Below, piece by piece: positions 13,724 through 64,000 of a stretch of DNA of 64,000 bases; position 1 is the first letter of the stretch; each line of letters opens with the position of its first letter. The notes under the pieces were generated by a model. That model made no database searches, was not told where the DNA came from, and saw nothing but the letters and a program-made list of their open reading frames with translations. The position numbers and the translations under genes were made by a program. Source of the DNA: Escherichia phage StefiGeyer_Bas88; sequence record PQ850628.1; one strand, 5' to 3'.

Positions 13724-13942
13724 ATGAAAATGATGAAACAAATCAGTTATGGGTTAGCTTGTGTTGCTACCGGTTTTGCTGTGTCAGTGGCTGTTCCTGT
13801 TAACGCTGTGCATCCTCTGGTAACACAACCTGCACCAGTTGAGAAATTGAGTGCATCATGCAAGCAGCGTACAATTCAAAATAATCTTGTGGTTATTTGT
13901 CCGGACTCTGATTCTAGTGCTCTGAGAAATATGCTTCAGTAA
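13724..13942 (+). CDS. small secreted/membrane protein (possible lysis accessory)
   Basis: 72 aa with N-terminal hydrophobic signal-like segment MKMMKQISYGLACVATGFAVSVAVPVNA; RBS AGGAG; immediately upstream of lysozyme gene. Confidence 0.35.
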   Translation: MKMMKQISYGLACVATGFAVSVAVPVNAVHPLVTQPAPVEKLSASCKQRTIQNNLVVICPDSDSSALRNMLQ

Positions 13943-15289: not shown

Positions 15290-18200
15290 ATGGCTCTCTA
15301 TCCAATTAAATCACTAGGCGCAGTTGGGGTTATCGCTGACCAAGCACCTACTGACTTAGCACCAAATGCTTTTACTAACGCTATTAATGCTCGGTTTGTT
15401 GAGCAGAGAGTCTTTAAGACGGGGGGCAATGCCCCTCTTTCTTATGTAGACGAAGATAAAGATCTGACTCCTCTCTCATTCCTTTCAATGCCTTTCGACT
15501 ATTATAGCGCAGGTAATAGCTTTCTTGTGGTAGGTACAGATAAGAAACTGTATAAACTTACCGACGAGAGTTTAACTGATATCAGCCGTAAGGTTGCTAC
15601 AGCGACAAAGAAAGCATCAGCGACAATTAAGATTTATCCAGTAGTCTCAAATATTGTTCCTAAAGAGACTTCTGTATCTATGAATTTTAACCAGACCAAG
15701 ATTCTCGAAGTTGAAGTCACCCCTACAGATGCTCAAAATGCTAATCTAGTTTGGGAAGTAAGCAACTCTTCTTATGGTAGTATTGAAGTTGACCCTACTG
15801 ACTCCAAGAAGGCTACCCTAACTTCTAAGTCTGTTGAAGGTAATTTAGTTGTGACAGTGAGCACATCTGATGAATCTATCTCAGCTCAGATTGCAGTTAA
15901 TATCATTGATGGTGATTCAGGTATCTATTTGAGCCAAGACACTTTGACTATGCGTAAAGGTGGTACATCAACCCTTACAGCAATTACAGGCAAACCATCT
16001 GTAACTTGGTCTTCCTCTAACCCATCCTTAGTTTCTGTTTCTCCTAATGCTAATACAAAGACAGTTGTTCTTACAGCTCTTGGAGAAGGACAGGTAACTA
16101 TAACTGCTGATAATGGAACAAAGACTGCATCTTGTACAGTAACAGCAATACCTCAAATTGATAGCATCACATTAAGTCAGACAGACATTCAAATGAGTCG
16201 TGGTACTCAGTACATCTTAACTGCAACAGTTAGTCCAGCTAACGCACCCAACCAAACAATCACTTGGACTTCTTCTAATACCAACATTGCTACAGTAAGT
16301 GGTACAGGTACAGAAGCTACAATAACTGGATTGCTTGCGGGGTATACAGAGATTACAGCAGTTACAGCGGAAGGAGGTCGTTCAGCAGTTTGTACTGTAC
16401 GTGTTGATTTATCTTCTCGTCTGGCAAGTAGGGCTATGTCAGCAATGACTATCACTACAGAAGATCCTGTAGAAGAACCAGTGGTTGGCTCAGAAGAAGT
16501 TACTTATTTTGACGCTGATACAATTGGCATTGATACAACAGGGATGGCGGAAGGAAACAACTTCTACGACTACTCTAACGTCATGGACTTGGAAGGTTTT
16601 GGTAGAGCAGCAATGCTTGCTAATGATCCACCTTTGACTGGAGTTACTCTTGATGTTATTGATGCCTCTCTTGATGTAGGTGAAGAGATTGTTATCACAG
16701 CTACAGCATCTCCTACTGGAAGCTATACTTACAAGTGGACAGTTGATAAGAGTGGTTATGTTTCTACTACTTCTACAACTGACTCAACTTTGAAACTTAC
16801 TGCTATTCGTAAGGGTGAGGTTAAAGTGACTTGTACTGTAAGCCAGATGGTTCAGAAAGACTATGATGCGTTTGAAGATTATCCTTGGTATCATGCGATC
16901 ATCTCTAACTGTGCAGTAGCAACTACTCACTACGAAACTCCTCAGGTTAAGGAATTCGATTCTGAATACTTCACTGATCTTCCGGGATGGGGCGAGCAGA
17001 CGGTTGTTGATGCAGATGGTAATCCTTCTGTTAAGAAGTATAACTGGAAATGTGAACGAGTGAGAGCTTTTAACAATAGATTGTTTGCTCTGAATATGAG
17101 AGAGTCTAATGCCTCTGGTGTTACTACTCACTACCCTCTTCGTTTGCGTTGGTCTAACTTTGCAGAGGAAAACAAAGCCCCTCAGCTTTGGGATGATTAT
17201 GCATATGACCGAGCAGTGAGTTCTGACCTAGCAGCTAACATCGTAGGACAGACAGAAGCTCTTGAGAACGGTTATGCAGGATATATTGATTTGGCTGACT
17301 CTAATGGTAGTTTGTTAGATGTTCTTCCTCTGAAAGATTATCTGTTCGTTTACACTGAGTTTGAAACTTATATCGGCTCTCCTACCAACAACACCTATCA
17401 GCCTTTGATGTTTAAAAAGCTGTTTAACGATTCAGGGATACTTGCTCCTGAGTGTGTGGTGGAAGTTGAAGGTGGTCACTTTGTGGTAACTCAGAACGAC
17501 GTCATTCTACACAATGGTGCTTCTAAGAAATCTATTGCTTCTAACCGAGTGAAGAATATGATCATTAATGAGATTTGTCTGGTGAACCCAATTGCTACAC
17601 GAGTTCATCTTCATCAGGATAAGAAAGAAGTATGGGTTCTTTATGTAGGTCCGGGTGAGCCTAAGGAAAGTTTTGCCTGTACTAAAGCAGCAGTATGGAA
17701 TTATGAGTTCGATACTTGGTCTTTCCGTACGATTCCTTACTCTTACTGTATTGGTCTGGTTGATCCTCCGGTTCTGGAACGTGGTCCTATCTGGGCTGAT
17801 TTCCAAGAGATCACTTGGGATGACCCTTCGATTGACAAACTAGTGTGGAGAAAAGATGCAACTAACTTCCGTCAGCGAGTTACAATCATAGGTTCTTTCT
17901 TGAAAGGATTTTACCAAGTTGATATAGGAGCTTTGGATTATATCTATGACAGAACAAATGATGTGGTTATAGAGAAGCCTCTGGAAATGAGACTAGAGAG
18001 AACGGGGATTGATTTTGATAACGTCACTAATGAATGGAATCAGAAACACATTAACCGATTTAGACCTCAAGTAACAGGAACAGGGACTTATACTTTTGAA
18101 GCAGGTGGTAGTCAATTCTCTAATGAGTATGGACACAACCACTCTACTAAAGAGTTTAGGGTTGGTGTAGATCGTCACGTAGCAGTCAGACTGAACCATC

Positions 18201-18295
18201 CATACCTATTCTATAATGTTATAGATAATGATGTTAACAGTAATGCGTCTATGAATGGTTTAACCATAGAGTTTGCTGTTGGCGGTCGAAGATAA
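15290..18295 (+). CDS. large virion protein with tandem bacterial Ig-like domains (tail/adhesin candidate)
   Basis: 1001 aa; RBS AAGGAGG; three Ig-like segments (e.g. ITWTSSNTNIATVSGTGTEATITGLLAGYTEITAVTAEGGRSAVCTVRV). Confidence 0.6.
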   Translation: MALYPIKSLGAVGVIADQAPTDLAPNAFTNAINARFVEQRVFKTGGNAPLSYVDEDKDLTPLSFLSMPFDYYSAGNSFLVVGTDKKLYKLTDESLTDISRKVATATKKASATIKIYPVVSNIVPKETSVSMNFNQTKILEVEVTPTDAQNANLVWEVSNSSYGSIEVDPTDSKKATLTSKSVEGNLVVTVSTSDESISAQIAVNIIDGDSGIYLSQDTLTMRKGGTSTLTAITGKPSVTWSSSNPSLVSVSPNANTKTVVLTALGEGQVTITADNGTKTASCTVTAIPQIDSITLSQTDIQMSRGTQYILTATVSPANAPNQTITWTSSNTNIATVSGTGTEATITGLLAGYTEITAVTAEGGRSAVCTVRVDLSSRLASRAMSAMTITTEDPVEEPVVGSEEVTYFDADTIGIDTTGMAEGNNFYDYSNVMDLEGFGRAAMLANDPPLTGVTLDVIDASLDVGEEIVITATASPTGSYTYKWTVDKSGYVSTTSTTDSTLKLTAIRKGEVKVTCTVSQMVQKDYDAFEDYPWYHAIISNCAVATTHYETPQVKEFDSEYFTDLPGWGEQTVVDADGNPSVKKYNWKCERVRAFNNRLFALNMRESNASGVTTHYPLRLRWSNFAEENKAPQLWDDYAYDRAVSSDLAANIVGQTEALENGYAGYIDLADSNGSLLDVLPLKDYLFVYTEFETYIGSPTNNTYQPLMFKKLFNDSGILAPECVVEVEGGHFVVTQNDVILHNGASKKSIASNRVKNMIINEICLVNPIATRVHLHQDKKEVWVLYVGPGEPKESFACTKAAVWNYEFDTWSFRTIPYSYCIGLVDPPVLERGPIWADFQEITWDDPSIDKLVWRKDATNFRQRVTIIGSFLKGFYQVDIGALDYIYDRTNDVVIEKPLEMRLERTGIDFDNVTNEWNQKHINRFRPQVTGTGTYTFEAGGSQFSNEYGHNHSTKEFRVGVDRHVAVRLNHPYLFYNVIDNDVNSNASMNGLTIEFAVGGRR

Positions 18296-18301
18296 CAACT
18301 A

Positions 18302-18325
18302 GGGAGCTTCGGCTCCCTTTTATTG
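18302..18325 (+). terminator. intrinsic terminator
   Basis: GGGAGC-TTCG-GCTCCC perfect stem, UUCG tetraloop, followed by TTTTATTGTTTAT. Confidence 0.65.
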
Positions 18326-18344
18326 TTTATAATTGGAGGTACTT

Positions 18345-19355
18345 ATGGGTGCTGGAGGTTTTCGTAAGAATACTGGAAGAAACAACACCACACTTCCCTA
18401 CAACGTTGGGTTTCTAAACAATGTAGAGGATACGGATAAATACAACGTTGCAGTTTATGATGAATTGCAGAAAGTCAGTACAGCAACTAACCAGATGTTC
18501 CAAGCAATCGACGAGATTCATGAAGAGATAGATGTTCGTATTAAAGCTCTTAATGCAATGAACCTACAGTTTGATGAACTTGAGAACCGAATTACTACAG
18601 AGATTGAAACAGCTATTGCTGATATTCAAACACAGATGGGTAATCTTTCTACTGAAGACATTTGGGATAGAAGCACTAACCCTCCGACTAAACTAGATGG
18701 TACAGTTGCAGGTTTCAAAACTTCTATTGAAGGCAATGATTTAAAGATTCAGACAGTACAAGGTATTGTGAATGAACAAGGACAAGAGATTGCTTTAGTT
18801 CAGACAGAACTTACTGCTCAAGGTACTCAGATTGCCGAAGTGGATGGTAAGGTTACTACTGTACAGAACTCTCTTTCTCAATACATGAGACTAGATAGTT
18901 ACGAAGCTACATGGGGTGTCAACTCTTCTGTTAATGGTCAGTATGCTGGTGTTAAACTAACTAACAACGGTACGAACAGCCAATTCCAAGTAACGGCTAA
19001 TAAGTTTATTGTTGGTGATGGCAACTCTGGTAACACTCCTTTTGTTTTTGAAGGTGGTAGAGCTAGAATGGAATTCGCTGATATCAAGAATGTCAACATT
19101 ACAACTGCTCAGATTGCTAATGCTCGAATCCAATTTGCTCAGATTGATAACGTATGGATTCAAGATGGACAGATTGCTAACCTTACTGCTAACAAAATTA
19201 CTGCTGGTTCTATGAGCGGTTCTAACTGGAGACTTACAGTTGGTGGAGATTTTGTTATGGGCGGTACAGGTGGGGCACAGCTGTGGATGAATGGTAACAG
19301 GATTGATTTCTATGATGGTGGTGGTGCTTTGAGAATTAGAATAGGGAGTTGGTAA
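18345..19355 (+). CDS. hypothetical tail-associated protein
   Basis: ATG at 18345 preceded by GGAGG (track start 18333 is a TTG inside the RBS region); N-terminal coiled coil, Gly-rich C-terminus. Confidence 0.5.
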   Translation: MGAGGFRKNTGRNNTTLPYNVGFLNNVEDTDKYNVAVYDELQKVSTATNQMFQAIDEIHEEIDVRIKALNAMNLQFDELENRITTEIETAIADIQTQMGNLSTEDIWDRSTNPPTKLDGTVAGFKTSIEGNDLKIQTVQGIVNEQGQEIALVQTELTAQGTQIAEVDGKVTTVQNSLSQYMRLDSYEATWGVNSSVNGQYAGVKLTNNGTNSQFQVTANKFIVGDGNSGNTPFVFEGGRARMEFADIKNVNITTAQIANARIQFAQIDNVWIQDGQIANLTANKITAGSMSGSNWRLTVGGDFVMGGTGGAQLWMNGNRIDFYDGGGALRIRIGSW

Positions 19356-19356
19356 T

Positions 19357-20388
19357 ATGGCATATGGAATATGGTGTCAACCTGTAGGACCGGGGCCAGC
19401 CTCTCCGGCTCCTTTGTTTATCGACAGTGGGAGTACATTCCCTCAGATTAAGAACTCTATTAGTGGGAGTTTCAACTTTAATGGGGGTGGGAGATCTTTC
19501 CCTATTAATGGTTGGGATGGTAGCGGTCAGATAATTATCGTCCCTACTGGATCTCTGTGCTGGCAGTGGGAAGTTCCTCCTAACTTGGTTCCTGATGTTT
19601 ATTGTGTTAATAACATTTATGTAGAGAATAACTCCTCTTTCAGAGTTAACTTAAACCAGAATCCCGGAAGTAACCCCCTGTTTGATTGTGGGTTTAACGT
19701 TTACCAAATCTACCCAAGAGCTGACAGAAATTACGGTATTACCTTCTCTAATACAGCTGATTACTTCTCTATCTCTGATGCTGGTGTTGTTGGTCAGTGT
19801 ATTTGGGCTTGGCAAGGGACTATAAACGGCGCTTTACAGATTCCTGACATTGGTGGGTTTTATATGCCTAATGCTGTAGTCTTTGCTAACTGGTCTGACG
19901 GAGGGATTGGCCTTTCTTATACATCTGGAGATAGAGTAATCCGTGTATATCAGAACAGATCTTATAATAACGGAAACTCTAACGAAGGCGGTTCTGTATT
20001 TGCTAGGGTCGCAGTATTCTGTAATGGAGCAGGAGTTCCTGAGCACAATGGTGGATTAAATATTTATTCTCCCGGAACAACTCAGTGTGTGTTCTCTACT
20101 AATAGAACACCTTTTACTGTTGATAATTTTGTAGGTTCTGCTGGAGGTGATACTGGTATGGCATACCCAATGATACCCCTCTCCTCTGGTGTAGGTGCTA
20201 TTCGGGGTAGTGGTAGTGGTTGGTACTATCAGCAAATGAGATCTCATGTAATGACAGGATCTTCTATAGGGACTGGCTATGGTAGGTACATGTTCCAGTG
20301 GTCTACCAATTATGACCTAGGTTCTAACTCTGCCATTAACATATCAATTCCGGTAATAAATGCGGCTAAAGTTTTTGCGGGTCTATAA
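19357..20388 (+). CDS. hypothetical virion protein
   Basis: 343-aa ORF, start 2 nt after previous stop, RBS GGGAG. Confidence 0.5.
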   Translation: MAYGIWCQPVGPGPASPAPLFIDSGSTFPQIKNSISGSFNFNGGGRSFPINGWDGSGQIIIVPTGSLCWQWEVPPNLVPDVYCVNNIYVENNSSFRVNLNQNPGSNPLFDCGFNVYQIYPRADRNYGITFSNTADYFSISDAGVVGQCIWAWQGTINGALQIPDIGGFYMPNAVVFANWSDGGIGLSYTSGDRVIRVYQNRSYNNGNSNEGGSVFARVAVFCNGAGVPEHNGGLNIYSPGTTQCVFSTNRTPFTVDNFVGSAGGDTGMAYPMIPLSSGVGAIRGSGSGWYYQQMRSHVMTGSSIGTGYGRYMFQWSTNYDLGSNSAINISIPVINAAKVFAGL

Positions 20389-20401
20389 TAAGGAGGATTT
20401 T

Positions 20402-21196
20402 ATGACAATTCGCATGGGAGTGTCTGAGCTTGACCCTATGGTCCAGCAAGCTTCTAAGAAGTACGGCATTCCTGCTGCTCTTATCCATGCAGTCATTCAG
20501 AGGGAGTCTAGTGGTAGACCTTCTGTTGCATCAGGTACAGGGCCAGTAGGTTTAATGCAAATCAGTAAAGGGTTGGCTAAAGACTATGGATACAAACTAG
20601 AAGATCGTTTAGACCCAGCCAAAAATATTGACATGGGTGCTAGATATATTCGTGATAATTTGAAAGCTTTTAATGGTGATGTGAAGAAAGCTATGGTGGG
20701 TTATTCTGAAGGGACTGGTGGAGCAAAACAAATGTTCGCTGGTAAGAAGGGGTTTACACCTCAAGCCTTGGATTCTATGAACAACAAAAACTTCCTCCCT
20801 TTCTATACAGCCAATGATGCTGCTGGTCAGGTGGCTAATCCGGTTGGGGCTTTACAATCAGCACAGCCAGTGAACCAATTCTCTCCTGAGTTGGTTACTA
20901 AAGAAGGTGCTGCTAATGCTCCTACTCAAGCTGAGATTGCTGCTGCTAAGACAGGAGCTCTAGGCGGTTCTCCTGCTGAGTTCTATTCTGACGATGCAGA
21001 AGAGGCTGGGGAAGATCAGAAACCACAACAGAACTTCGGTAATGCTGCACTAGCTGCTGCTGCGATGTTAGCAGGAAAGGCTCCTAAGTCTCAAACAGTT
21101 CAGAGAGCACATGCACCAACTCAAGCAGGTTCTCAATACAGCCCACAGACACAAGCCGTTCTTAGACGTTTGGCAAGTGTTGGTGTTATTAAATAA
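20402..21196 (+). CDS. virion protein with lytic transglycosylase (SLT) domain
   Basis: ATG at 20402 after AGGAGG; motif QRESSGRPSVASGTGPVGLMQI matches SLT catalytic E-S...G-L-M-Q signature. Confidence 0.65.
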   Translation: MTIRMGVSELDPMVQQASKKYGIPAALIHAVIQRESSGRPSVASGTGPVGLMQISKGLAKDYGYKLEDRLDPAKNIDMGARYIRDNLKAFNGDVKKAMVGYSEGTGGAKQMFAGKKGFTPQALDSMNNKNFLPFYTANDAAGQVANPVGALQSAQPVNQFSPELVTKEGAANAPTQAEIAAAKTGALGGSPAEFYSDDAEEAGEDQKPQQNFGNAALAAAAMLAGKAPKSQTVQRAHAPTQAGSQYSPQTQAVLRRLASVGVIK

Positions 21197-21208
21197 TAAG
21201 GAGGACGT

Positions 21209-22258
21209 ATGTCTTTATTCGGGTCTGCTTCTAAGACTAAAACTACAGTGGCTCCATCCTCTCAGGTTGATGCTCTGTTAAAACAGATTGTGGCTAATGC
21301 TCAGAATATGAACAGCAATGATGCTGGATTTATTTCTCAGCAACTAGCTGGCCTTAACCCTAACCAACAAGCTGCTCTATCTAACTTAGCTAACTCTTCC
21401 ACCTTGAATCAACTGAGTAATATGTACACTCCTCGGACACAACAAGGTCTGGATCAGATGAACACTTTGGCTCAGAGATATCAAGACTTGGCTAATAGTT
21501 CAATCAGTGCTAGTGATGTTAACAAGTTCAGTTCTGGTCTAAACAGTTCTGCACTGGCTCAGGCAACAGGAAAGGCTGCATCTAACGTATCTCTTGGTAA
21601 TGGTTCTGATTCAGGATCTCTTCGTAGGGCTGCTGCTCAGGGTGCTGCTTTGAATTCTGCTAATACCAACCTGTCTCGTACTATCTCTGGTAAGAACTTA
21701 GGTGTTGACGCTTTAAGATCTAACAGTTCCTTCCAGCAAGGCCTTCTGAACGCACAAACAGGGTTGGCTGGACAAAACCTTAACCTCGGCTCTCAAGGCA
21801 CTCAGGCAGCTCAACAGGCTATCCAGAATCAACTTACTGCTGGTAACTTACAACAGCAGCAAGATCAGACTCAAGCTGACCTTAATTGGCAGAATGCTAT
21901 TGGCAGTCAACAGTATGGATGGAATCAACTCAACAACCAATTAAATGTATTAAACTCAGTAAGTCCTGTGGCTGGTTATACAATTACTAATAAAGGAGCC
22001 TCTCCTAACACATCCCAGCAAATTCTTGGTGCTGGAGTGACTGGTCTAGGTATTGCTGGTAGATTGGGTGCTTTCACTCCTAGTCAACAAACTCAGAATG
22101 CTTGGAACTCTTATAATGCTTCGGGTGGTCAATCTGGTATGGCTGGTCCTATGATCGGTGGGTCTAACCTGTCCAATCAGAGTAATCAGAATAACTGGTT
22201 GTCTACAGCTGGGAGTAATATTTTGGGTGGTGTTCTAGGTGCCTTCGGGGCAAACTAA
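21209..22258 (+). CDS. Q/N/S-rich hypothetical virion protein
   Basis: 349 aa, low-complexity Gln/Asn/Ser/Gly-rich; RBS AAGGAGG. Confidence 0.5.
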   Translation: MSLFGSASKTKTTVAPSSQVDALLKQIVANAQNMNSNDAGFISQQLAGLNPNQQAALSNLANSSTLNQLSNMYTPRTQQGLDQMNTLAQRYQDLANSSISASDVNKFSSGLNSSALAQATGKAASNVSLGNGSDSGSLRRAAAQGAALNSANTNLSRTISGKNLGVDALRSNSSFQQGLLNAQTGLAGQNLNLGSQGTQAAQQAIQNQLTAGNLQQQQDQTQADLNWQNAIGSQQYGWNQLNNQLNVLNSVSPVAGYTITNKGASPNTSQQILGAGVTGLGIAGRLGAFTPSQQTQNAWNSYNASGGQSGMAGPMIGGSNLSNQSNQNNWLSTAGSNILGGVLGAFGAN

Positions 22259-53312: not shown

Positions 53313-55346
53313 TTAATGTTTACCTTTACAGTAATCTGAATTACAGATCACCCTGTTTTCTTTGTTTAGTGAGCAAATTTCTGCATCACGCCACGGAATT
53401 TGTTTATAACAGACCGCACAAAACCCAATTGAAGTCCAGAGGGCTTTTGTGAACTCAGCTGTTCGTTGTCCGTCGTAACTGACAACTGTTTTTCGGAGAG
53501 TTGTTTGCTTTTCTGGAAATGTTTCCGCTTTCTCAGCGGGCACCTCCTTTGGGGCATTCTTTGGACCATAAACAGAGATGGCATAGGTATCGCCACCACG
53601 TTTTTCCAAATAAGAGTTTGGAACATCAGACAGCTCAATATCACCAGAACGTTTAGCTGAACTAGCCATTACAGTCATTCGGCTAAGCATACGCTGATCA
53701 ACACGAACTGCTACTTCAGGGCGACGTGGGTTAGTTGTGTCGACTGCTTTAGTCCAAATGTAACCTTCAGACAATGTAGTGTTAGTCACTTTGTCTTTGA
53801 TTTCTTTGGCACAGACATAACAAATATCTTCACCACGAAGTTTACTCATTTCGTTATCAAACTCGAAATCAGTTTTAACATTGCCACATACAGCACAGAC
53901 ACCTAAAGGAATGTCTTCATCTTCTTCAGACGGTTTGGACAACGCTTCGAAACAGGCCGGATGCCAATATGCTTGGTAAGCGAACACAGCTTTCTTAGCA
54001 TCTTTCCATTCAATGTGCTTGTCACAACCGCCACAATCACCATGAGAATGTGATTCCCAGAACTTACGGGTGACTTCCACACCATTCTTAGTGATGAAGG
54101 AGTCTTCTAAATCAAAAGGGATATCATCATCAAAATCAGCGGTGGTGCTTTGAGGCTCCTTATCGGTAGCATCAACAAACAGCCCTGAAGTGAGTACGAG
54201 GCGAATCATACTGTCCACTTCGGAGATACAAGCAACCGTCCCGCGATACACCACCTTTGGGTTTTCGAGAGCCTTCAAGTATTCACTCTTGGCTACATTA
54301 TGAACATCACCCTCAACATACTCTTGAGCAGCATCATCATAAATATAACCAACCATCTTACCACGGTCAGTGTTGTTGTAAGCGTGGAACTCGTGAGGGA
54401 TGATATCCACACGACCGTCACGACGATACGGAAGACCACGATCGGCAGCCAGTTTATTCTGATCTTCAATCGCTTTACGACGACGAATGTCTCCGCTTGT
54501 CACGCCGGGCTTGTCGTCTTTGTTTCCGTAAATGTCGCTTGTGCTGCTGCTTGACTTGTTTGTCTGTTGGTTCTGATATAGAGAGGAGTTCGAGTAATAG
54601 CCGCCCCAGCGACTCGTTACCGTAAAAACCGGAAGCTTGTGCTCCACCTCTTGAGTCAGAGTCATACGGTTGCCAGACAAATCAAAGATGTATTCAGTTC
54701 CCACTTTACACTCAAAGTGATCATTGATACGGTTCTTGTGTGACTTGGAACGATTAAGAATCCACATCAACATATCTTCTTCAGAAGCACCAAACCAATC
54801 CAGACCACAACGGGCCAGATGGAAAGGACGTTCATCGTTACGAATGATATGCAGAGTATTGTCTTTGGCGTCATGCCAGATTAAAGTGAACGCACCATCC
54901 AACTTCTGGATAGTCTCTGCTGCGCCGATGGTGTTGATTGAATGACAGATGTTTTCGCTATCAACTTCGAAATTCTTATGATCTGGTAACAGTTCCTGAT
55001 CTAACAGTGTACCATTATGAACCAGAGTAATGTCACCATGAGAGAATGGGTGAGCATTTCGAGCATTGACAGCACCACGTGTGGCATGTCGGCTATGACC
55101 AACAATCCACGATGGAGGAACTACATAGTTCGTAAGCCCCTTAGTAAGATTCGTGTACCCTGTCTGGAGCATGAAGGCATAGGAAGGAAGTGCTTCTTTA
55201 TAAGAAAATACTTTTTCATCACCTTTACGCTGACCGAACACACCAGTTGAGTGCTGACCACGGAAGACTCCAGCATACAGAAGCTGGTTGAATACGTCTA
55301 AGTCTGTGGAGGTCATGTTGCCCCCAGCTAATACGATACCACAAAT
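53313..55346 (-). CDS. class-II (Ntn-type) glutamine amidotransferase with C-terminal zinc-ribbon region; probable non-AUG start
   Basis: HSRHATRGAVNARNAHPF...HNGTL GATase-II motifs; the conserved catalytic N-terminus CGIVLAGGN lies upstream of the first in-frame ATG (55316), reached only via ATT at 55346-55344, itself preceded by AGGTGG; C-terminal Cys clusters CGGC...CAVCGN...CYVC...CAVC...CNSDYC. Confidence 0.65.
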   Translation of the reverse strand: MCGIVLAGGNMTSTDLDVFNQLLYAGVFRGQHSTGVFGQRKGDEKVFSYKEALPSYAFMLQTGYTNLTKGLTNYVVPPSWIVGHSRHATRGAVNARNAHPFSHGDITLVHNGTLLDQELLPDHKNFEVDSENICHSINTIGAAETIQKLDGAFTLIWHDAKDNTLHIIRNDERPFHLARCGLDWFGASEEDMLMWILNRSKSHKNRINDHFECKVGTEYIFDLSGNRMTLTQEVEHKLPVFTVTSRWGGYYSNSSLYQNQQTNKSSSSTSDIYGNKDDKPGVTSGDIRRRKAIEDQNKLAADRGLPYRRDGRVDIIPHEFHAYNNTDRGKMVGYIYDDAAQEYVEGDVHNVAKSEYLKALENPKVVYRGTVACISEVDSMIRLVLTSGLFVDATDKEPQSTTADFDDDIPFDLEDSFITKNGVEVTRKFWESHSHGDCGGCDKHIEWKDAKKAVFAYQAYWHPACFEALSKPSEEDEDIPLGVCAVCGNVKTDFEFDNEMSKLRGEDICYVCAKEIKDKVTNTTLSEGYIWTKAVDTTNPRRPEVAVRVDQRMLSRMTVMASSAKRSGDIELSDVPNSYLEKRGGDTYAISVYGPKNAPKEVPAEKAETFPEKQTTLRKTVVSYDGQRTAEFTKALWTSIGFCAVCYKQIPWRDAEICSLNKENRVICNSDYCKGKH

Positions 55347-55423
55347 TTTCTAATCCACCTGAAGGGTAAACCCTTTCATCTAATTAACCTTTAAATGCGC
55401 CCTTTATCAGAGCGCCCATTGTG

Positions 55424-56524
55424 TTACAGCAGTCGTTCTAATTGCATTTCCAGATGGTCTGGAATGTAATCGGTGATGTTATTATCACTGCTACCTGATT
55501 CACGCATCAGAGCAAACATGTGACGAATTTCACGAACCGTTGCGATTCGAGTGTTTTCAATCTGAGGGGTGTAATAGGTCATGATCTCTTCATAAACAGA
55601 GTTAGCATTACCTCGTACATATCCCAAGAAACCGTAGAAGTCACCCATGTCACGCAAGTTGATAAGGATTTCACCATCAGGTCCAGTCTGCTGTACACGA
55701 ACACGACCAACCAGAGTAACAGAATGTTCACGACAGAACAGAATATCACGAGCCAAACGATAACCGCCAGTCAGGTCATCATCATTAGGTGTGTAGTCCA
55801 GAGGCAGATACTGAATCATAGGAGCGAAGCGTAGCTCATTCAGTTTCTCAACATATGCTTCATTGTCCAAATCTGCATACTCAACAGCTAGTTTCTTGAG
55901 AACCAAGAAGCGGTTGACCAGATTAAGGAGTTGGCTTTTCTTCCACTTTGGCTCTGAGATACGAAATTCAACAGAACCAAACTGAGCCAGAGGTAATAGG
56001 TTAAGGGAGGTGTACTTGTCCCAGCTATTAACAAGAGTATTGAAGAAGGCTTCACCATCTCGGTTGAACGCTGCGGAAGCATTCATTACCTGTGCTTGAA
56101 CAACAGCAAAGGCAGGACAGAAGTTGCTACGATAGCGATGGTATCCAGAACATTTGAACATCATCTTTTCATAGAACGTCCATCCAAGAATTACTTTCTT
56201 CAGGATGTTACTATCAGCGTCACGCATATCCATATGAACGTGAGTAGAGCAGCGCCAAGTCCCTTCAGCTTCAGAGTCTTGTACTGCTTCACTCAGATTG
56301 TTAATAGCACTAAGCAATTCTACACCGTTATAAGGCCGTGCACAAACCATCTCACAGCCATCACGAAGTGAACCATCTTCAGTACAAACCCAAAGGTCTG
56401 CATCAATTTCAGAGGTTCCTTCAACTTCCAGCTCGATGCCAATACCACACTGAAAAGCGATGCTTGGGTGCGGCTCAGCCAGACGAGCATTACGGTATCC
56501 AAAAACTTGTGCTACGGTTGTCAT
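55424..56524 (-). CDS. glutamine-synthetase-like carboxylate-amine ligase (amidoligase)
   Basis: GIGIELEVEG and RCSTHVHMD resemble GCS2/YbdK-type amidoligase motifs. Confidence 0.5.
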   Translation of the reverse strand: MTTVAQVFGYRNARLAEPHPSIAFQCGIGIELEVEGTSEIDADLWVCTEDGSLRDGCEMVCARPYNGVELLSAINNLSEAVQDSEAEGTWRCSTHVHMDMRDADSNILKKVILGWTFYEKMMFKCSGYHRYRSNFCPAFAVVQAQVMNASAAFNRDGEAFFNTLVNSWDKYTSLNLLPLAQFGSVEFRISEPKWKKSQLLNLVNRFLVLKKLAVEYADLDNEAYVEKLNELRFAPMIQYLPLDYTPNDDDLTGGYRLARDILFCREHSVTLVGRVRVQQTGPDGEILINLRDMGDFYGFLGYVRGNANSVYEEIMTYYTPQIENTRIATVREIRHMFALMRESGSSDNNITDYIPDHLEMQLERLL

Positions 56525-57147
56525 AACGTTTCCACCAACTCTACATTATATGATGACAGATCTGAAGAAATATGCTTGAACTTCTCCAGAAGATTTAAAG
56601 ATTGACGACCATTGTCGCCGTAACCAGCAGAAAGATCAACTTGACCTACAAGTGCCCCTTTGTAATAAACTTTACCATCGACAGGGTTGATGTAGATGAA
56701 GCGAGTAACCAGACCTTCGAAGTCAGGATTAAACAGATTATACACCAGCTCTCCCGGAATCGAACGACCCATTGAAGGAGGTGCGCCACGTAATTTGTTC
56801 CCCATCAGACCTTTAGCTCGCTGACGAACAGGGTTGATATGAGTCCAGCTTACCATGTTGTTGCCGTGTTGTAAGTATCCCACATCTGGAGATTCCAGAA
56901 TAAGGCTTTGATCAAACACAGGAATGCCCTGAACAACCTGTCGTTCAAACTGCCCTTCGGCGTTCTTAGACCAGCGTTCAACTTCAAAAGTTAAGGCCAT
57001 TTCTGCTTCGTGAGAGAAGTCATCTTCTCCAAAGCGGTTTGCTTGGTTCACGTTGAGTACATAAAGAGGTAAGTTAATTCCTCGTTCTGCACGTTGGGCA
57101 ATCCATGTTCCGCAATAATAATGCTGAAAATCTCTTAACAGGCTCAC
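56521..57147 (-). CDS. hypothetical protein (cassette member)
   Basis: 208-aa ORF, ATGA coupling. Confidence 0.45.
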   Translation of the reverse strand: MSLLRDFQHYYCGTWIAQRAERGINLPLYVLNVNQANRFGEDDFSHEAEMALTFEVERWSKNAEGQFERQVVQGIPVFDQSLILESPDVGYLQHGNNMVSWTHINPVRQRAKGLMGNKLRGAPPSMGRSIPGELVYNLFNPDFEGLVTRFIYINPVDGKVYYKGALVGQVDLSAGYGDNGRQSLNLLEKFKHISSDLSSYNVELVETL

Positions 57148-57156
57148 GATAACACC

Positions 57157-57963
57157 TTAGATAATCTGGAGTTTAGAGGAGAACTTATCCGCTTCTTTAA
57201 CATCGTTGCTATTGATGATGTTGTGAAGCTTTTCGATAGGCAGACGGGAGTGCAGAGACATGAGAATTTCCATATCACAGCCCTGAATAACCTTATCAAC
57301 TTGATCGTAAACAAACTTACGAGTGGACTGTTCACCAATCCAGAAGTTCGACAGAGAACGGTATTCAATACCATAATCTTTATAACGAATAGCAGATGCC
57401 TTGCCGTAAAGCTCTTTACGACGAGTGTCCTTATCCATAATTACCGCTGGAAGTGACAAGAAGTAATCACACAGAACACCCAGCATCATCTGAGTCTGTC
57501 GAGTTACTTCCAAAGACCCTGCAACACCGAGGTGTACGTGACCGCCAGCAGTACGAAGACCTTTGTCTGTCGCTACCGGAGATGGGTTTTTCTGACCAGT
57601 GAAGGCGTTGAAATCAGGAGTACAGCCAAACACAAAGGCTGATGGATGGAATGATTGCAGCTCTTCAGAAGTGTACACATGAGAACTAATCCCAAGTGCA
57701 GCTTCCATACCACGTTCATTAAGAACTTTGTTGGTCAGATCAATACCACGCTGGATGTTATCATCAAACGCTTCGAACCCTTTCTGTGGGTTAATATCGA
57801 ATTCAGCCAGAACGTTGTCTTCTTGAAGACGAACATCAGGGGCCAGATCAATTTTGTTATCTTTAGAACAGCCCAGCTTACCAGCCACAGAGGTGATAAT
57901 ACCAGAAGCAGTACGAACAAACATTTCAGGGTCAGAACCAATAAGGAAAGCACGCTTAGTCAT
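57157..57963 (-). CDS. second carboxylate-amine ligase-like protein (COOH-NH2 ligase type)
   Basis: ATG at 57963 (overlaps upstream stop); FLIGSDPEMF and GGHVHLGV motifs. Confidence 0.45.
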   Translation of the reverse strand: MTKRAFLIGSDPEMFVRTASGIITSVAGKLGCSKDNKIDLAPDVRLQEDNVLAEFDINPQKGFEAFDDNIQRGIDLTNKVLNERGMEAALGISSHVYTSEELQSFHPSAFVFGCTPDFNAFTGQKNPSPVATDKGLRTAGGHVHLGVAGSLEVTRQTQMMLGVLCDYFLSLPAVIMDKDTRRKELYGKASAIRYKDYGIEYRSLSNFWIGEQSTRKFVYDQVDKVIQGCDMEILMSLHSRLPIEKLHNIINSNDVKEADKFSSKLQII

Positions 57964-58906
57964 TGTAATACTCCACAAGTTCATCAAAAAGGGAAACAAC
58001 ACGGGCACCAGCTTCTTCTGGTGTCATTGAGGAAGGTACTGCTTGCATCAAGCGTTCAATAAAACTGCGAACAGTAATTCTGTCCATACGCTGATCTAAT
58101 ACTTCACGTTTATGGCCTGCACACATTGACCAGAGACGCAACCACTCACTCATACTTTCGTAATAGTCAGGGTCTTGGTCACGACGACGAGCCATACTAC
58201 GAAGAACTCCGTCATTATGGTTTCGTACATAACCATCTCTGTTATCACCAACACCGAACACGTTCTGAACCCATACGTTTTCAGAAAATTCGTCAGTGGT
58301 ACAGACCAGTGGCAAGAATGCAATTGCACTCATTTCGCCAGTAAAATAGGTCGCTGCTGATTCATCATCAGTATCCACATCATGTGAATAATCCCAACGA
58401 CCAAAGAAGTTACGACTTAAACCAGCTAAGCGTAAAGCTAAGCCGATTCGTTGTCGCTTGAGTAACTCTTCCTTGTCTTGAACGCCTTCCTGAAGGAACT
58501 CCATTCCCATAAAATCCCCATCCAGATAACTACGGAGGGTCATTAATCCAGTAAACACCTTGTCTGCTGGGTGGTCTCGAAGGTTCACGGCAACTGAGTT
58601 CACCGAAGTGACAGAGAACATGTTTTTATAGCAAGACATTGAGTTAAAAATGTCTGTTGCTTCAACTAAAGCTCTTTCGATATCTTTAGCTGGTACGCCA
58701 TAAAAATTGTGAGGCCAGAAGTTGATAACTCCAACTTCTGAAGTTCTATCACGAAGGCTTGAGAGATTGATACTGTCGCCATTAATGTCTGTAACAGCAT
58801 ACATATGCTGACAGTTGAAAGTACCAAAACAAGCTCGCCCTCTGAACACTGACTCACCAAAGTTCTCTGATGGTGTTACCGGAGCAGTCGATGCGGAGAT
58901 TGACAT
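57956..58906 (-). CDS. hypothetical protein (cassette member)
   Basis: 316-aa ORF, no recognisable motif. Confidence 0.45.
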   Translation of the reverse strand: MSISASTAPVTPSENFGESVFRGRACFGTFNCQHMYAVTDINGDSINLSSLRDRTSEVGVINFWPHNFYGVPAKDIERALVEATDIFNSMSCYKNMFSVTSVNSVAVNLRDHPADKVFTGLMTLRSYLDGDFMGMEFLQEGVQDKEELLKRQRIGLALRLAGLSRNFFGRWDYSHDVDTDDESAATYFTGEMSAIAFLPLVCTTDEFSENVWVQNVFGVGDNRDGYVRNHNDGVLRSMARRRDQDPDYYESMSEWLRLWSMCAGHKREVLDQRMDRITVRSFIERLMQAVPSSMTPEEAGARVVSLFDELVEYYND

Positions 58907-58914
58907 ATTCGCCT

Positions 58915-60132
58915 CTATTTATTGAAGAATAATTTTTCCAAAATGTTTTCCCACTCTTCTGAGGGACGTACTGTATAATTACTACCTGTCAGTCCATTGG
59001 ACATACTACTGATAATGTTATACATGTTGTAGCTTCGAGCTGAAGCTGTTTCATTGTTCCAGTTATAACCGAACACAATTTTAGCAAAAGATGTTTCAGA
59101 TTCAGCCACCTCTCGGATAAATTCAACCAAGAGTGACTTTTCTGTGATGATTGGGCGGGTATCTTCCGACAGATGGCAATATTGAGGCAAAAGGATTGGC
59201 AAGAACATCGAGTTGTTCACTCGACAATCACGAACACCTTCACTGCGATAGATCAGACTGGAGAAGTCTTCATCACGAAGATGACCTTCACCTCCAGTGT
59301 ATTCACACTGTCGCCATTTGGTCTGGCGAGGCTCAACCATTGTACTACCAACACCCACTGTATACAGAGATGCTTGGAAGATACAGGAATCGTAATCATT
59401 CCCTGTTAAAGCAACACGTTCGTTACCGAACACATCCACTGAAGAGTTGATCAGTCGGCTGAATGCAAGAGAGGCTAAAGGAGACCAGCCCTTCTTATAC
59501 ATCTTGTTCAACATTTCATACACAGCAGATTTTTCATCATCTGTATAGAATGTGCGATTCAACATCAGATAGAACAGAGCACGATCAGCGGGACAGCCAT
59601 CAGTGCAAACACCCATGAACCCTACTTCATGCCATACCAGACATGAGTCAGAGTCTTTGTCCATGAATGCTGCAAAGGTTTCCATAACAACACGATCAGT
59701 GATGTCAGGACGGTTGTTTTCTTCTGCCCACGTTTCCACATGAGAAGGAGGACGAGGGTCTTCATTTTCTAACCCTTCACGGAAATACTGAGTAGCGATA
59801 TATTCAGTATCACCATAACGTCTTACACCGTGAGCTGGAAGATGTGTTCCGGAGTTCCAGATATACTTGATTTCAGACATAGGCAACATATTCTCAAGAA
59901 CGTTCTCTTCAGCAGTGCCTTGACGAACCATCATATTTCCACTCCACACCTTGATGCGGATATTCCAGCCGAAATTACTATCGTATGTATTATAGTAATC
60001 AGGATCACCATCTTCATCATCGTCATAATCACCACCCTGATAGTAACCTGCTTTCAGGAAACCATAACAAGGGGGCCAGACGGTTACAACGTCTTCTGAT
60101 TCTTTCCAGCTTTGAAGTGTTACAGGGAACAT
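58915..60132 (-). CDS. hypothetical protein (cassette member)
   Basis: 405-aa ORF, RBS GAGGT; acidic N-terminal tract DYDDDEDGDPDYY. Confidence 0.45.
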   Translation of the reverse strand: MFPVTLQSWKESEDVVTVWPPCYGFLKAGYYQGGDYDDDEDGDPDYYNTYDSNFGWNIRIKVWSGNMMVRQGTAEENVLENMLPMSEIKYIWNSGTHLPAHGVRRYGDTEYIATQYFREGLENEDPRPPSHVETWAEENNRPDITDRVVMETFAAFMDKDSDSCLVWHEVGFMGVCTDGCPADRALFYLMLNRTFYTDDEKSAVYEMLNKMYKKGWSPLASLAFSRLINSSVDVFGNERVALTGNDYDSCIFQASLYTVGVGSTMVEPRQTKWRQCEYTGGEGHLRDEDFSSLIYRSEGVRDCRVNNSMFLPILLPQYCHLSEDTRPIITEKSLLVEFIREVAESETSFAKIVFGYNWNNETASARSYNMYNIISSMSNGLTGSNYTVRPSEEWENILEKLFFNK

Positions 60133-60143
60133 CTTTTACCTCT

Positions 60144-60506
60144 TTACTCTGCTACCAAAAGGCTCAGAGATTTACGAATGTAGGCAATGCTACGGAAGTT
60201 TCGATAGTTCTCTTGGAAGCGCATCTTTTCAAATTCTGCTTCCTGAAGTTCTACCTCTGCTGCATTGTATCCTGCCACAGCCAAACTCACCACATCCTGA
60301 GGTAAGATATTACGACGACGAATAAGATATTTATTCGCCTTTAGTTTGCTTTGTGCACGAGCCATTTTGGCCTTTGCCGCCTTAATGCCATGAGCAATCC
60401 AGAGCAGTTGCTGCTCCAAATCATTCTCGTCCATGCCACCCAAATCATTTGCTACTTTATGCAGCGTAGACAGGTTCACATGGCCTTTGATGGGGCGTAG
60501 GTTCAT
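60144..60506 (-). CDS. hypothetical protein
   Basis: 120-aa basic ORF. Confidence 0.4.
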   Translation of the reverse strand: MNLRPIKGHVNLSTLHKVANDLGGMDENDLEQQLLWIAHGIKAAKAKMARAQSKLKANKYLIRRRNILPQDVVSLAVAGYNAAEVELQEAEFEKMRFQENYRNFRSIAYIRKSLSLLVAE

Positions 60507-60670
60507 AACTTCTCCTGTTTATCACATTGATTGGTCAGCCAGTTGTAAGCCCCTCTGTTGTTCTTGCTTAACTCACAAGATGCAAAAGAATAGGTTCTGA
60601 CAAACCCCACGGTGGCTAAGCAAATAAAGATTGCTGCCAATAAGAACTTAACTTTCAACTTATTATCCAT
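60505..60670 (-). CDS. small lipoprotein-like protein (54 aa, below ORF-track cutoff)
   Basis: ATG at 60670; MDNKLKVKFLLAAIFICLATVGFVRTYSFASC signal/lipobox-like; stop overlaps next ATG. Confidence 0.3.
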
Positions 60671-60688: not shown

Positions 60689-60716
60689 TTAAAAAAGGAC
60701 TCTCCTAAGAGAGCCA
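60689..60716 (-). terminator. intrinsic terminator (minus strand)
   Basis: Minus-strand RNA GGCUCUC-UUAG-GAGAGUCC followed by UUUUUU. Confidence 0.6.
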
Positions 60717-61838: not shown

Positions 61839-62036
61839 TTTTGAAGCTCCAAAACAGCGCCGAAAAGAGAGGCGTCATAGTAGCTAAAGGGAGGAGAGAA
61901 GAGGGCTTATTTACTTGCCTTTTTCTGTCCGTTAATGTACCAGATAACTGAGCCATCAGGCTGTCGTTGACCGAAGCCTTTCAAGTTAACCATTTCTTCT
62001 TCAGAGTAGGCACGTTTTCTCACTGATTTTCTCCTG

Positions 62037-62294
62037 TCAATAGAAGGTGTGTGTAGAGTCGTCGTTCATAGATAACCAAACAAAGAAGACAATCACACAG
62101 AAAGCAATAATACCGAGAATTGCAAGGATTATAGTGTTAGCTAATGTGATATCTAACACGCTTTGCAGATACATAAAGAACTGTACGACACCACATATCA
62201 TTAGCACGACACCAACAACAATGAGGAGCCAATATGTGCAGAGAAGGGCTGCATCCAATAGTGACACATATTTTGGATGATCTTTACGTTTCAC
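62037..62294 (-). CDS. small membrane protein
   Basis: 85 aa with two hydrophobic helices. Confidence 0.4.
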   Translation of the reverse strand: MKRKDHPKYVSLLDAALLCTYWLLIVVGVVLMICGVVQFFMYLQSVLDITLANTIILAILGIIAFCVIVFFVWLSMNDDSTHTFY

Positions 62295-62550
62295 TAACCT
62301 TCTCCACTAAATCCAGAGTTGCTGATTCAAATACAACACCAACTGGCATATTAGGTGCCATATTACGAACGTACCCACTCTGCATAGACACGGCTCGAGA
62401 GTATTCAGAACCGTTAGAGCTTTTGTTTACCTTCATGTAAAGGGTTTGTTCTTTATCTTCTTTAAGGGTAAAGAAAGAGCCGGGAAGAATCCCCTGAACA
62501 GTCAGAGGGATATCTGCAACATGAGTCTTATTGATAGTAAGAACTGTCAT
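62284..62550 (-). CDS. hypothetical protein, PGD-motif paralog family
   Basis: 88 aa; DIPLTVQGILPGSFF... Confidence 0.4.
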   Translation of the reverse strand: MTVLTINKTHVADIPLTVQGILPGSFFTLKEDKEQTLYMKVNKSSNGSEYSRAVSMQSGYVRNMAPNMPVGVVFESATLDLVEKVSET

Positions 62551-62553
62551 TGC

Positions 62554-62808
62554 TTATTCCTTAATAATTGCTTCAGCTTTAATAGGAATAACAGCAACAT
62601 CTTTACGAGGCGCTGTCGCTCGGCCTGTGTTAAGACAGGCTACAAGTCTATGCTCGTCCGCACCCTTAATGCACAAGCGAGTGGAGAACTCTGTAGAGAG
62701 TAAGATGTATAAATCACCATCTTCACTGTTAGGGTACATGAAGCAATCCCCAAGTCGCAAAGCACTGAGAGGTATTGAATTTTTACCTGCTGGCATGTTA
62801 ACTTTCAT
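62554..62808 (-). CDS. hypothetical protein, PGD-motif paralog family
   Basis: 84 aa; SIPLSALRLGDCF...GDLYILL...VAVIPIKAEAI. Confidence 0.4.
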   Translation of the reverse strand: MKVNMPAGKNSIPLSALRLGDCFMYPNSEDGDLYILLSTEFSTRLCIKGADEHRLVACLNTGRATAPRKDVAVIPIKAEAIIKE

Positions 62809-63084
62809 TTAACCACCTTTAGTTATGGACCAATTTATGAGAGAACTCTCGGAAGAATGCTTTCATAAATAGGGGGAGGGGACGAATCCTCCCATATCCT
62901 ATTAATTAATGTTGCATGTAAGACCTAACAATCCGATGCTGTAGTGGATAGCGTAAAATGCTTACCGGCATTAAACCCAGCCCATGAGGGGCTTATGTGA
63001 TTAAAATGCTCAACATTGAGCGGTTAGTTGATAGGAGATCTGAAGTCCTATCTCAAAGGACTCTCGTAAGAATCCTTCACGATA

Positions 63085-63339
63085 TTACTTAGTAACAAAG
63101 ATTGTCACCTTATCCATTACCCAGCCTATCAACATAAGGAAAGGTAAGAAGAGGATAAAGATCAGCATAAAAGGCCAGAAGAATATCACCGTCCAAATAG
63201 AATATTCATCAGGCTTACCACTCCATGAGGAATGGAAGAAGTTGTAGAGTGTATTGGTTTTGAAGCACCATTTAACTACAATGGCTGCTAACCACCAACC
63301 AATAACATAAATCAGGAGGACATACGCTGCTGTAACCAT
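63085..63339 (-). CDS. small membrane protein
   Basis: 84 aa, two hydrophobic helices, Trp-rich. Confidence 0.4.
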   Translation of the reverse strand: MVTAAYVLLIYVIGWWLAAIVVKWCFKTNTLYNFFHSSWSGKPDEYSIWTVIFFWPFMLIFILFLPFLMLIGWVMDKVTIFVTK

Positions 63340-63566
63340 TCACCGTTCCATTGATAGTTGCGAGTTACCACGTTTCCGTGGATAAGGAAGTGCTGGCGGC
63401 GAAGGATATCTTTAACGTTGTAATAGGCAGCGTTTCCGATATGACCTTCTTTGATAAGCCAGCGCAGATTACGAATATCAACCAACAACATCTTTACTTG
63501 CTGTTGGCATGAAGTTTGAGCCGCTGTTTCAAGTAGAGCTTTCGTATCAGAATAATGACCAGACAT
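63312..63566 (-). CDS. hypothetical protein
   Basis: 84-aa ORF. Confidence 0.4.
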   Translation of the reverse strand: MSGHYSDTKALLETAAQTSCQQQVKMLLVDIRNLRWLIKEGHIGNAAYYNVKDILRRQHFLIHGNVVTRNYQWNGEWLQQRMSS

Positions 63567-63567
63567 A

Positions 63568-63894
63568 TCACCACTCCTTACCTGTTGTTGTCACAGAGCC
63601 ACCACACAGCTCACCACGAGAGATGAAGTCATAACGTGACCAATCACCTTGCGTCTCCATGTCACGCTCTGCATAAGCCTTCTCGTCAACAGCACCGCCA
63701 TTGGAACAAGAAGCACCAGCATAACGCATATCAATTTCTCCACTAGGAATCTTCTCTCCGCTATGCCAACGGGAAACACAGACACCTTCTACAGATAATG
63801 CACACCACCCATCAGGACGATGCTGTACGCAGCCTGTAAGAGCTACACAGGTGATAAAGATACAGGTTAAGGTAATTACACCACCCCAGCTCAT
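63568..63894 (-). CDS. lipoprotein (Cys-rich), superinfection-exclusion candidate
   Basis: Signal peptide with canonical lipobox LTGC (ITLTCIFITCVALTGC); RBS GGAGGG; 108 aa. Confidence 0.45.
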   Translation of the reverse strand: MSWGGVITLTCIFITCVALTGCVQHRPDGWCALSVEGVCVSRWHSGEKIPSGEIDMRYAGASCSNGGAVDEKAYAERDMETQGDWSRYDFISRGELCGGSVTTTGKEW

Positions 63895-64000
63895 GATCCC
63901 TCCTGAAGCGCCTTACGGCGGCTATCTCGCCAAGCCATCCATAGGTAGGTTTTAAGTTCTTCTCTTTCTTCTTCGCTGAACAGAGGAGAAGTAAAGATAT
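63893..64000 (-). CDS. partial CDS (3' end only; gene continues beyond the window)
   Basis: Open frame to the window edge; stop overlaps the downstream ATG (ATGA). Confidence 0.3.

Follow-up and report, generated by a model that had tools for sequence, protein, structure and literature searches.

The locus

The stretch of DNA analysed here (the window) comprises 64,000 nucleotides (nt) of Escherichia phage StefiGeyer_Bas88 (PQ850628.1) and carries, close to its far end, a small gene for a predicted lipoprotein that is probably a superinfection-exclusion factor directed at the lipopolysaccharide (LPS) exporter LptDE. A reading made from the sequence alone had pointed to an open reading frame (ORF) at positions 63568-63894. 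This ORF is present exactly as described, on the minus strand, where it encodes 108 amino acids (aa) behind a strong Shine-Dalgarno sequence and matches the Pfam family PF24052 far beyond chance (E=8.7e-36). The features of the gene and its product are as follows.

63568 to 63894, minus strand: coding sequence (CDS) of the 108-aa prolipoprotein, with an ATG start and the stop codon included; matches PF24052 (122 bits) and phrog_4281; orthologues are SU7_97 and Bas87_0096.
63899 to 63904, minus strand: Shine-Dalgarno sequence AGGAGG, 4 nt 5' of the ATG, read from the sequence; a ribosome-binding site is annotated at the same place in SU7.
63832 to 63894, minus strand: signal peptide, residues 1-21, MSWGGVITLTCIFITCVALTG, with a hydrophobic core and an n-region that has no Lys or Arg.
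63829 to 63840, minus strand: lipobox L19-T20-G21-C22; Cys22 is the predicted lipidated N-terminus and is followed by Val and Gln (no Asp at +2).
63715 to 63819, minus strand: Rtp45-like core, residues 26-60, RPDGWCALSVEGVCVSRWHSGEKIPSGEIDMRYAG, from the phmmer alignment to 9RPS_D.
63571 to 63714, minus strand: C-terminal extension, residues 61-108, in which a second pair of conserved Cys residues (C63 and C97) is predicted to close a variable loop.

The ATG of the gene overlaps the stop codon of a small upstream ORF as ATGA. Both orthologues are annotated as 'hypothetical protein', and codon changes relative to SU7 and Bas87 give ratios of synonymous to non-synonymous changes of 14:7, 13:6 and 19:2. 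Judged by these counts, the gene is under purifying selection.

Over positions 62000-64000, the window shows 90-98% identity to the Gordonclarkvirinae E. coli podophages ECBP2, SU7, Bas87, TH42/43 and EK010. SU7 is classified as Suseptimavirus, and these relatives are prolate C3 podophages of ~77 kb that are related to phiEco32 and SU10. By this comparison, the source is a Suseptimavirus-like E. coli podophage of the Gordonclarkvirinae. The region around the lipoprotein gene is syntenic with the early region of SU10 and phiEco32 (CDS69-125), which in SU10 was assigned as early by homology to phiEco32 (PMC4281155). The initial placement of the gene in the early region agrees with this synteny, and such timing fits an exclusion factor. 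A promoter scan close to the gene gave scores no better than those of shuffled sequence; the true upstream promoter is located beyond the end of the window.

Homology to Rtp45

The lipoprotein matches PF24052 (Phage lipoprotein family) over the entire model (positions 1-80 of 80) with 122.2 bits against a cut-off of 27. There was no further Pfam match at E<=1, and NCBIfam yielded no match for this protein or for the 55-aa mini-ORF described below. A word-indexed search recovered PF24052-type relatives in nine clusters at 90% identity, and an exhaustive profile search of 1.84 billion representatives recovered only 18 clusters at 50% identity, which indicates that the family is small and restricted to phages. 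Three of these 18 clusters are long proteins, two with several weak repeated matches (P0025 and P0026) and one with a strong match (P0013; E=6.6e-17, 11 stretches).

The only relative in the PDB is chain D of entry 9RPS, named 'Phage lipoprotein' (E=4e-16 when searched with the profile, 4.5e-15 with the sequence alone). This chain is Rtp45 (UniProt Q333D9) of the siphophage Rtp, solved in a complex with LptDE-LptM, and it scores 128 bits against PF24052 (E=1.3e-37). In PMC12685063, Rtp45 is described as a superinfection-exclusion lipoprotein that plugs LptDE from the inside. According to that paper, the protein binds closed LptDE from the periplasm, between LptE and LptM, its residues 30-35 build a beta-sheet with LptD residues 318-323, and a disulfide joins Cys30 to Cys38. 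A long hairpin then extends up the LptD lumen and shifts extracellular loop 4 by up to 20 Å, leaving the receptor-binding protein (RBP) unable to bind.

Within the core of the window lipoprotein, 20 of 35 residues (57%) are identical to Rtp45, with conservation highest in the hairpin region. Cys31 and Cys39 occupy the positions of Cys30 and Cys38 in the alignment with Rtp45, such that the same disulfide is predicted here, and the hairpin that follows corresponds to the portion of Rtp45 protruding into the LptD lumen. A comparison of 21 diverse members of the family shows five positions without any variation: the lipid Cys, Gly29, Cys31, Cys39 and Gly60. The protein also ends in the family-wide G-x-KEW motif. 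In the C-terminal extension, C63 and C97 are invariant in the Gordonclarkvirinae and, judging from this invariance, probably form a disulfide. A 15-residue insert that the 93-aa Kuravirus forms lack further distinguishes the Suseptimavirus-type protein.

Signal peptide, lipobox and membrane sorting

Residues 5-19 of the precursor are strongly hydrophobic (Kyte-Doolittle 2.44), and LTGC at residues 19-22 agrees with both the strict and the PROSITE lipobox patterns. The canonical lipobox that had been proposed therefore stands, but the signal peptide is not fully canonical. Specifically, the position of Cys22 and the PROSITE PS51257-type pattern (Cys within 15-35) fit, whereas the K/R rule (Lys or Arg among the first 7 residues) and the G+LPP pattern fail; Rtp45 satisfies both of the latter. 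The n-region, MSWGG, has no Lys or Arg, and export may be inefficient as a result. All Gordonclarkvirinae orthologues share this n-region without change; siphophage members of the family, in contrast, all begin MK(K). A 109-aa relative (P0011), encoded on metagenome contigs of ~640 bp (loci L006 and L007), carries the same long C-terminal insert behind an MK-type signal peptide, so the long form exists outside the MSWGG lineage.

The neutral n-region, the two failed patterns and the MK(K) start of all members from outside the Gordonclarkvirinae would fit a protein that escapes lipoprotein processing. Such a protein might be signal-anchored in the inner membrane or poorly exported and act there, for example against DNA entry in the manner of T4 Imm-type factors. 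However, the lipobox and the lipid Cys are invariant in all orthologues and in the whole family, the hydrophobic core matches that of Rtp45 in strength, and conserved Cys pairs in the mature part are typical of periplasmic oxidation. Moreover, neutral n-regions slow export without abolishing it. We consequently judge an unprocessed protein to be improbable and favour lipoprotein processing at Cys22.

The precursor contains seven Cys residues (11, 16, 22, 31, 39, 63 and 97), with two located in the signal peptide and four after the lipid Cys; the sequence-only reading had counted eight beyond the lipobox, which is corrected to four. In E. coli, lipoproteins without Asp at +2 are sorted to the outer membrane under the Lol rule. 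Here Val occupies +2 and Gln +3, and the lipoprotein is accordingly expected in the outer membrane.

A DUF6453 receptor-binding homologue and the tail needle

In the genome of Rtp, rtp45 adjoins rtp44, which encodes the LptD-binding RBP, and lies downstream of the J-like gene rtp43. Two further genes in the window are related to this arrangement.

19357 to 20388, plus strand: DUF6453 protein of 343 aa, a homologue of LptD-binding Rtp44 and of RBP-Oekolampad; proposed functional partner of the lipoprotein.
18333 to 19355, plus strand: tail needle, the SU10 gp18 orthologue, directly 5' of the DUF6453 gene; from the annotation in YF01 and Bas87.

When Rtp44 was compared with the window by tblastn, a match was obtained at 19456-20355 (E=3e-12) that spans nearly the full length of Rtp44. 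The protein encoded at 19357-20388 scores 88.4 bits against Pfam PF20051 (DUF6453; cut-off 25), the family to which Rtp44 is assigned with E=1e-113, and phmmer relates it to the solved Oekolampad RBP 9RPT_C (E=1.6e-12). Both the window protein and Rtp44 start with MA-x-GI-(Y/W). An AlphaFold2 (AF2) model based on 31 homologues had a predicted local distance difference test score (pLDDT) of 85 and a predicted template modelling score (pTM) of 0.86. With this model, the only significant Foldseek match in the PDB was again 9RPT_C (E=1.3e-12, probability 1.00, target-normalised TM-score 0.81); the next match had E=0.06 and a TM-score of 0.08. Relatives annotate the gene as 'hypothetical' or as 'membrane protein'.

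The tail needle, whose start is annotated ~54 nt further in by relatives, carries a Phage_Tail_Tip domain (PF09327) in its C-terminal residues 178-322 (E=1.6e-25). Residues 971-1099 of Rtp43, a lambda-J-like protein, belong to the same family (E=7e-35), and BLASTP relates the needle to Rtp43 with E=4e-5. With the tip domain, the DUF6453 RBP and the PF24052 lipoprotein all found, the window phage possesses all three parts of the siphophage LptD module.

Co-occurrence of the two genes

The window lipoprotein and Rtp44 were each used as tblastn queries against 50,697 phage records, with the following results.

Window lipoprotein: 383 records (Escherichia 271, Klebsiella 52, Shigella 25, Campylobacter 7, Dhillonvirus 4, Veterinaerplatzvirus 4).
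Rtp44: 431 records (Escherichia 276, Klebsiella 64, Shigella 30, Campylobacter 7, Dhillonvirus 4, Veterinaerplatzvirus 4).

The two genus profiles are near-identical. The lipoprotein is conserved in ~100 Gordonclarkvirinae genomes, and essentially all Gordonclarkvirinae records have both genes. Among the Dhillonvirus/Rtp-like phages for which both coordinates are listed (including AV129, 011D5, 101114BS4, SA30RD and 2725-N35), the lipoprotein and RBP genes adjoin. In the Klebsiella siphophages Domnhall (NC_049835/MN013075), ZX2 (MW722081) and TAH8, of ~50 kb each, the two genes are ~10 kb apart. Separated lipoprotein and RBP genes therefore have a precedent, and adjacency is typical rather than universal. 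The presence of both genes also suggests LptD-type recognition in these Klebsiella phages. In small siphophages, this type of RBP locus was reported to match LptD dependence without exception (Maffei et al., PMC8594841).

Two additional observations concern the distribution of these genes. Phage TH42 (MT446413.1) is ~97% identical to the window in the lipoprotein early region (62000-64000), yet its DUF6453 protein is merely 64% identical (region 17000-21500), and SU10-type phages show the reverse pattern. This mosaicism indicates that the RBP and lipoprotein variants do not strictly co-vary. In addition, the seven records labelled as 'Campylobacter jejuni' phages (A118, A121, A123, A127; MG0656xx) have both the lipoprotein and DUF6453, which is odd for this host; the labels may reflect mislabelling or contamination.

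Proposed function and mechanism

The homology to Rtp45, combined with an LptD-type RBP in the same genome, allows the target of the lipoprotein to be named as LptDE. We believe that the gene most likely encodes an Rtp45-type superinfection-exclusion lipoprotein of a Suseptimavirus-like podophage, with LptDE as its predicted target. The homology, the conserved motifs and the co-occurrence across genomes are the observations behind this assignment, and processing, LptDE binding and an exclusion phenotype are predicted from them. The receptor-blocking role that the sequence-only reading had suggested is supported by the relationship to Rtp45 and by the accompanying DUF6453 gene.

Presumably, the lipoprotein gene would be transcribed along with the other early genes, and its precursor would pass through Sec, be lipidated at Cys22 and be cleaved by signal peptidase II. 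The Lol system would then deliver the lipoprotein to the inner leaflet of the outer membrane, where Cys31-Cys39, and probably also Cys63-Cys97, would be oxidised. Docking on periplasmic LptDE in the manner of Rtp45 would place the beta-hairpin (~residues 39-58) up the LptD lumen and displace extracellular loop 4. LptD would thereby be barred from the open shape required by DUF6453-type RBPs. Infected cells would be closed to this phage and to other LptD-dependent phages, and progeny would be kept from sticking to debris. As a corollary, the DUF6453 protein, probably located on the tip of the tail needle, would bind LptD as the terminal receptor after the long fibres have bound O-antigen.

A more general proposal, to which we assign an even chance of being correct, is that the Gordonclarkvirinae (Kuravirus, Suseptimavirus and relatives, including SU10, phiEco32, ES17 and Bas86-94) use LptDE as their terminal receptor through a dispersed module of the siphophage type. 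This module would consist of a J-type Phage_Tail_Tip domain on a P22-like needle, a docked DUF6453 RBP, and an Rtp45-type lipoprotein that has moved to the early operon. Binding of the needle tip to open LptD would trigger needle release and nozzle formation.

This proposal offers a concrete and cheaply testable receptor prediction for a phage group that is used in phage therapy work. If true, LptD would be a receptor common to siphophage and podophage morphotypes, and one would expect these groups to show cross-exclusion and cross-resistance, a point relevant to the design of cocktails. The early lipoprotein would also lend itself, as it stands, to use as a probe of this essential outer-membrane machine or as a scaffold for inhibitors of it.

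Evidence on receptors and alternative roles

All Gordonclarkvirinae isolates of the BASEL collection require O-antigen; the study that reports this establishes no terminal receptor for them and names LptD for Dhillonvirus alone (PMC11990801). A 2023 review lists the receptors of SU10 as unidentified and considers contact of the needle with the outer membrane probable (PMC10743462). The cryo-electron microscopy study of SU10 describes needle release and nozzle formation and leaves open what the needle touches (PMC9509320). Our search of the literature on PF24052, DUF6453, Gordonclarkvirinae/Kuravirus and LptD revealed no prior statement linking these podophages to LptD, and the paper on the T1-like phage OzMSK does not mention podophages.

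In addition to the neutral n-region noted above, several observations weigh against an exclusion factor that acts on LptDE. The available text of PMC12685063 includes no plating assay of Rtp45 and argues its exclusion phenotype from structure. Known resistance to the podophages maps to loss of O-antigen and not to lptD (PMC11990801), although lptD is essential and lptD mutants were outside the tested set. The DUF6453 orthologue of SU10, gp19, is nowhere mentioned in the SU10 structure paper (PMC9509320). Likewise, shotgun proteomics of SU10 detected 34 proteins by mass spectrometry, including all of CDS16-18 and CDS20-24, but not CDS19 (PMC4281155); predicted masses confirm this CDS numbering. 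The absence of CDS19 is real evidence against a role in the virion. However, a monomeric, single-copy tip protein could have been missed in the polyethylene glycol preparation, or averaged out in the C3-symmetrised 15 Å map of the needle. On a separate point of composition, SU10 CDS19 has seven Cys residues and the nozzle protein nine, and the other six proteins in this block have none.

The remaining points against concern the lipoprotein itself. Its gene is 43 kb away from the DUF6453 gene and on the opposite strand, which renders the classical adjacency argument inapplicable. The C-terminal half, with the extra Cys pair and the insert, has no counterpart in Rtp45. An AF2 model of the lipoprotein from a 10-sequence alignment is unusable for assigning a fold (mean pLDDT 41, pTM 0.20); AlphaFold 3 also mispredicts Rtp45, as reported in PMC12685063.

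Some of these same features would be accounted for by a true PF24052 lipoprotein that acts on LptDE or on another outer-membrane protein and whose main role is not exclusion. It might reprogramme the envelope, for instance through reduced export of LPS or O-antigen, or its C-terminal disulfide loop might address a diverged target. The 48 C-terminal residues, with their second invariant Cys pair and lineage-specific 15-aa insert, the lack of linkage to the RBP-like gene and the failure to observe the DUF6453 orthologue in SU10 virions are all consistent with such a role. Also, an effect on LPS transport is conceivable from the location of Rtp45 in the LptD lumen beside LptM, as described in PMC12685063. 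However, conservation in the protein is strongest in the Rtp45-like core, to which the lumen hairpin belongs, and the lipoprotein family co-occurs with DUF6453 RBPs on the scale of whole genomes. Furthermore, an early receptor blocker is the classical pattern known from Llp and Cor. We consider a main role other than exclusion to be unlikely, albeit less so than a failure of processing, and prefer the Rtp45-type exclusion factor.

The surrounding early region and a possible lysis role

A scan of the window for ORFs of 35 aa or more covered 1834 start/ORF combinations, and the lipoprotein gene is the sole credible lipobox ORF among them; the other two lipobox matches are TTG-start ORFs in poor context. 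This uniqueness could point to an outer-membrane spanin or another lysis lipoprotein in a phage group that has no annotated spanin pair. Indeed, no canonical i-/o-spanin pair is visible near the holin and endolysin genes at 13.7-14.5 kb, and conserved Cys residues are also typical of o-spanins. We rejected this reading and regard it as highly improbable, on the basis of the following evidence. The protein is homologous to Rtp45 and to no spanin family, and its gene resides in the early region, ~50 kb from the lysis genes. No i-spanin gene adjoins or embeds it, as the flanking genes encode a soluble protein of 84 aa and one with a pair of transmembrane segments. Lastly, its mature part is not proline-rich and lacks the C-terminal transmembrane segment of a u-spanin.

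Near the lysis genes, the ORF at 13724-13942 (plus strand), beside the endolysin gene at 13973-14464, corresponds to the 'holin' of relatives. Its product of 72 aa begins with a single hydrophobic segment and continues as a proline-rich tail that contains Cys.

Other genes of the early region include two small ORFs at 63085-63339 and 62037-62294 (both minus strand) in the same early operon as the lipoprotein gene. They encode proteins of 84-85 aa with two predicted transmembrane segments each. These ORFs had no informative family match, and the annotation of one relative places a 'holin' within this stretch. Further along, an early-region cluster occupies ~55000-60132 (minus strand) and includes a 405-aa ORF at 58915-60132; the upstream genes in relatives are annotated as amidoligase, COOH-NH2 ligase, ATP-grasp and glutamine amidotransferase. 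Several products of the SU10 genes that match this cluster were detected by SU10 proteomics.

The sequence-only reading had also listed a second lipoprotein-like mini-ORF at 60505-60670. A conserved ORF does exist at this location, but it has no lipobox by either rule.

60503 to 60670, minus strand: mini-ORF of 55 aa with an N-terminal hydrophobic segment, two later Cys residues and no lipobox; matches phrog_13048 (E=8e-7).

The mini-ORF is annotated in Bas87, from which it differs by eight synonymous and three non-synonymous changes, and is intact but unannotated in SU7. A terminator-like hairpin is located just upstream at 60698-60715. Two candidate lipid Cys positions were rejected, since 'IFIC' has Ile at -1 and 'FASC' follows an Arg outside the hydrophobic core. 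From these sequence features, the product is classed as a small membrane or secreted protein outside the lipoprotein system.

Comparison with known exclusion lipoproteins

Cor lipoproteins (T1, phi80, N15 and HK022) are small, are encoded near host-specificity genes and inactivate the receptor FhuA. The comparison with Cor is by Pfam search, in which the window lipoprotein matched nothing but PF24052 at E<=1.

T5 Llp, to which the lipoprotein was initially compared, follows the same logic in that it is an early, small outer-membrane lipoprotein that binds the phage's own terminal receptor from its periplasmic face and stops RBP binding (PMC12685063; T5 record annotation). However, Llp differs in its target, which is FhuA, and in its mechanism, which is allosteric rather than a steric displacement of a loop (PMC12685063). 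Llp thus serves as an analogue, but homology was rejected because an hhalign comparison with the 21-member family alignment covers only 27 columns, comprising the signal peptide and the first residues. A Pfam search with Llp produced no family match.

SE-Oeko (bas18_0026) and the other lipoproteins of Dhillonvirus/Drexlerviridae LptD modules were found by tblastn with the window protein and belong to the same family. For phages with lipoproteins of this type, LptD dependence was shown genetically (PMC8594841; PMC12685063). Unlike the window protein, these lipoproteins are short (73-80 aa), have no second Cys pair and are always encoded adjoining the RBP gene downstream of gpJ.

Rtp45 shares with the window lipoprotein its Pfam family, a lipobox precursor, the RPDGWCA...GVC disulfide motif, the W-x-x-G-x-x-VP-x-GE-x-D-x-RY-x-G hairpin and the (S/G)KEW end. 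Both genomes also encode a DUF6453 protein and a Phage_Tail_Tip domain. The two lipoproteins differ in length (76 aa for Rtp45 and 108 aa for the window protein, with an overall alignable identity of ~42%), and the window protein has an extra C-terminal loop of ~30 residues with a second Cys pair as well as an uncharged n-region. The rtp45 gene is directly beside the RBP gene of a siphophage, whereas the podophage carries the window gene among its early genes, at a distance of 43 kb from the RBP-like gene. LptDE binding was shown for Rtp45 only and is predicted for the window lipoprotein. This lipoprotein falls in a family whose mechanism was solved in 2025, and the interesting outcome is the prediction of LptD as a receptor that the Gordonclarkvirinae would engage through a needle-tip DUF6453 protein.

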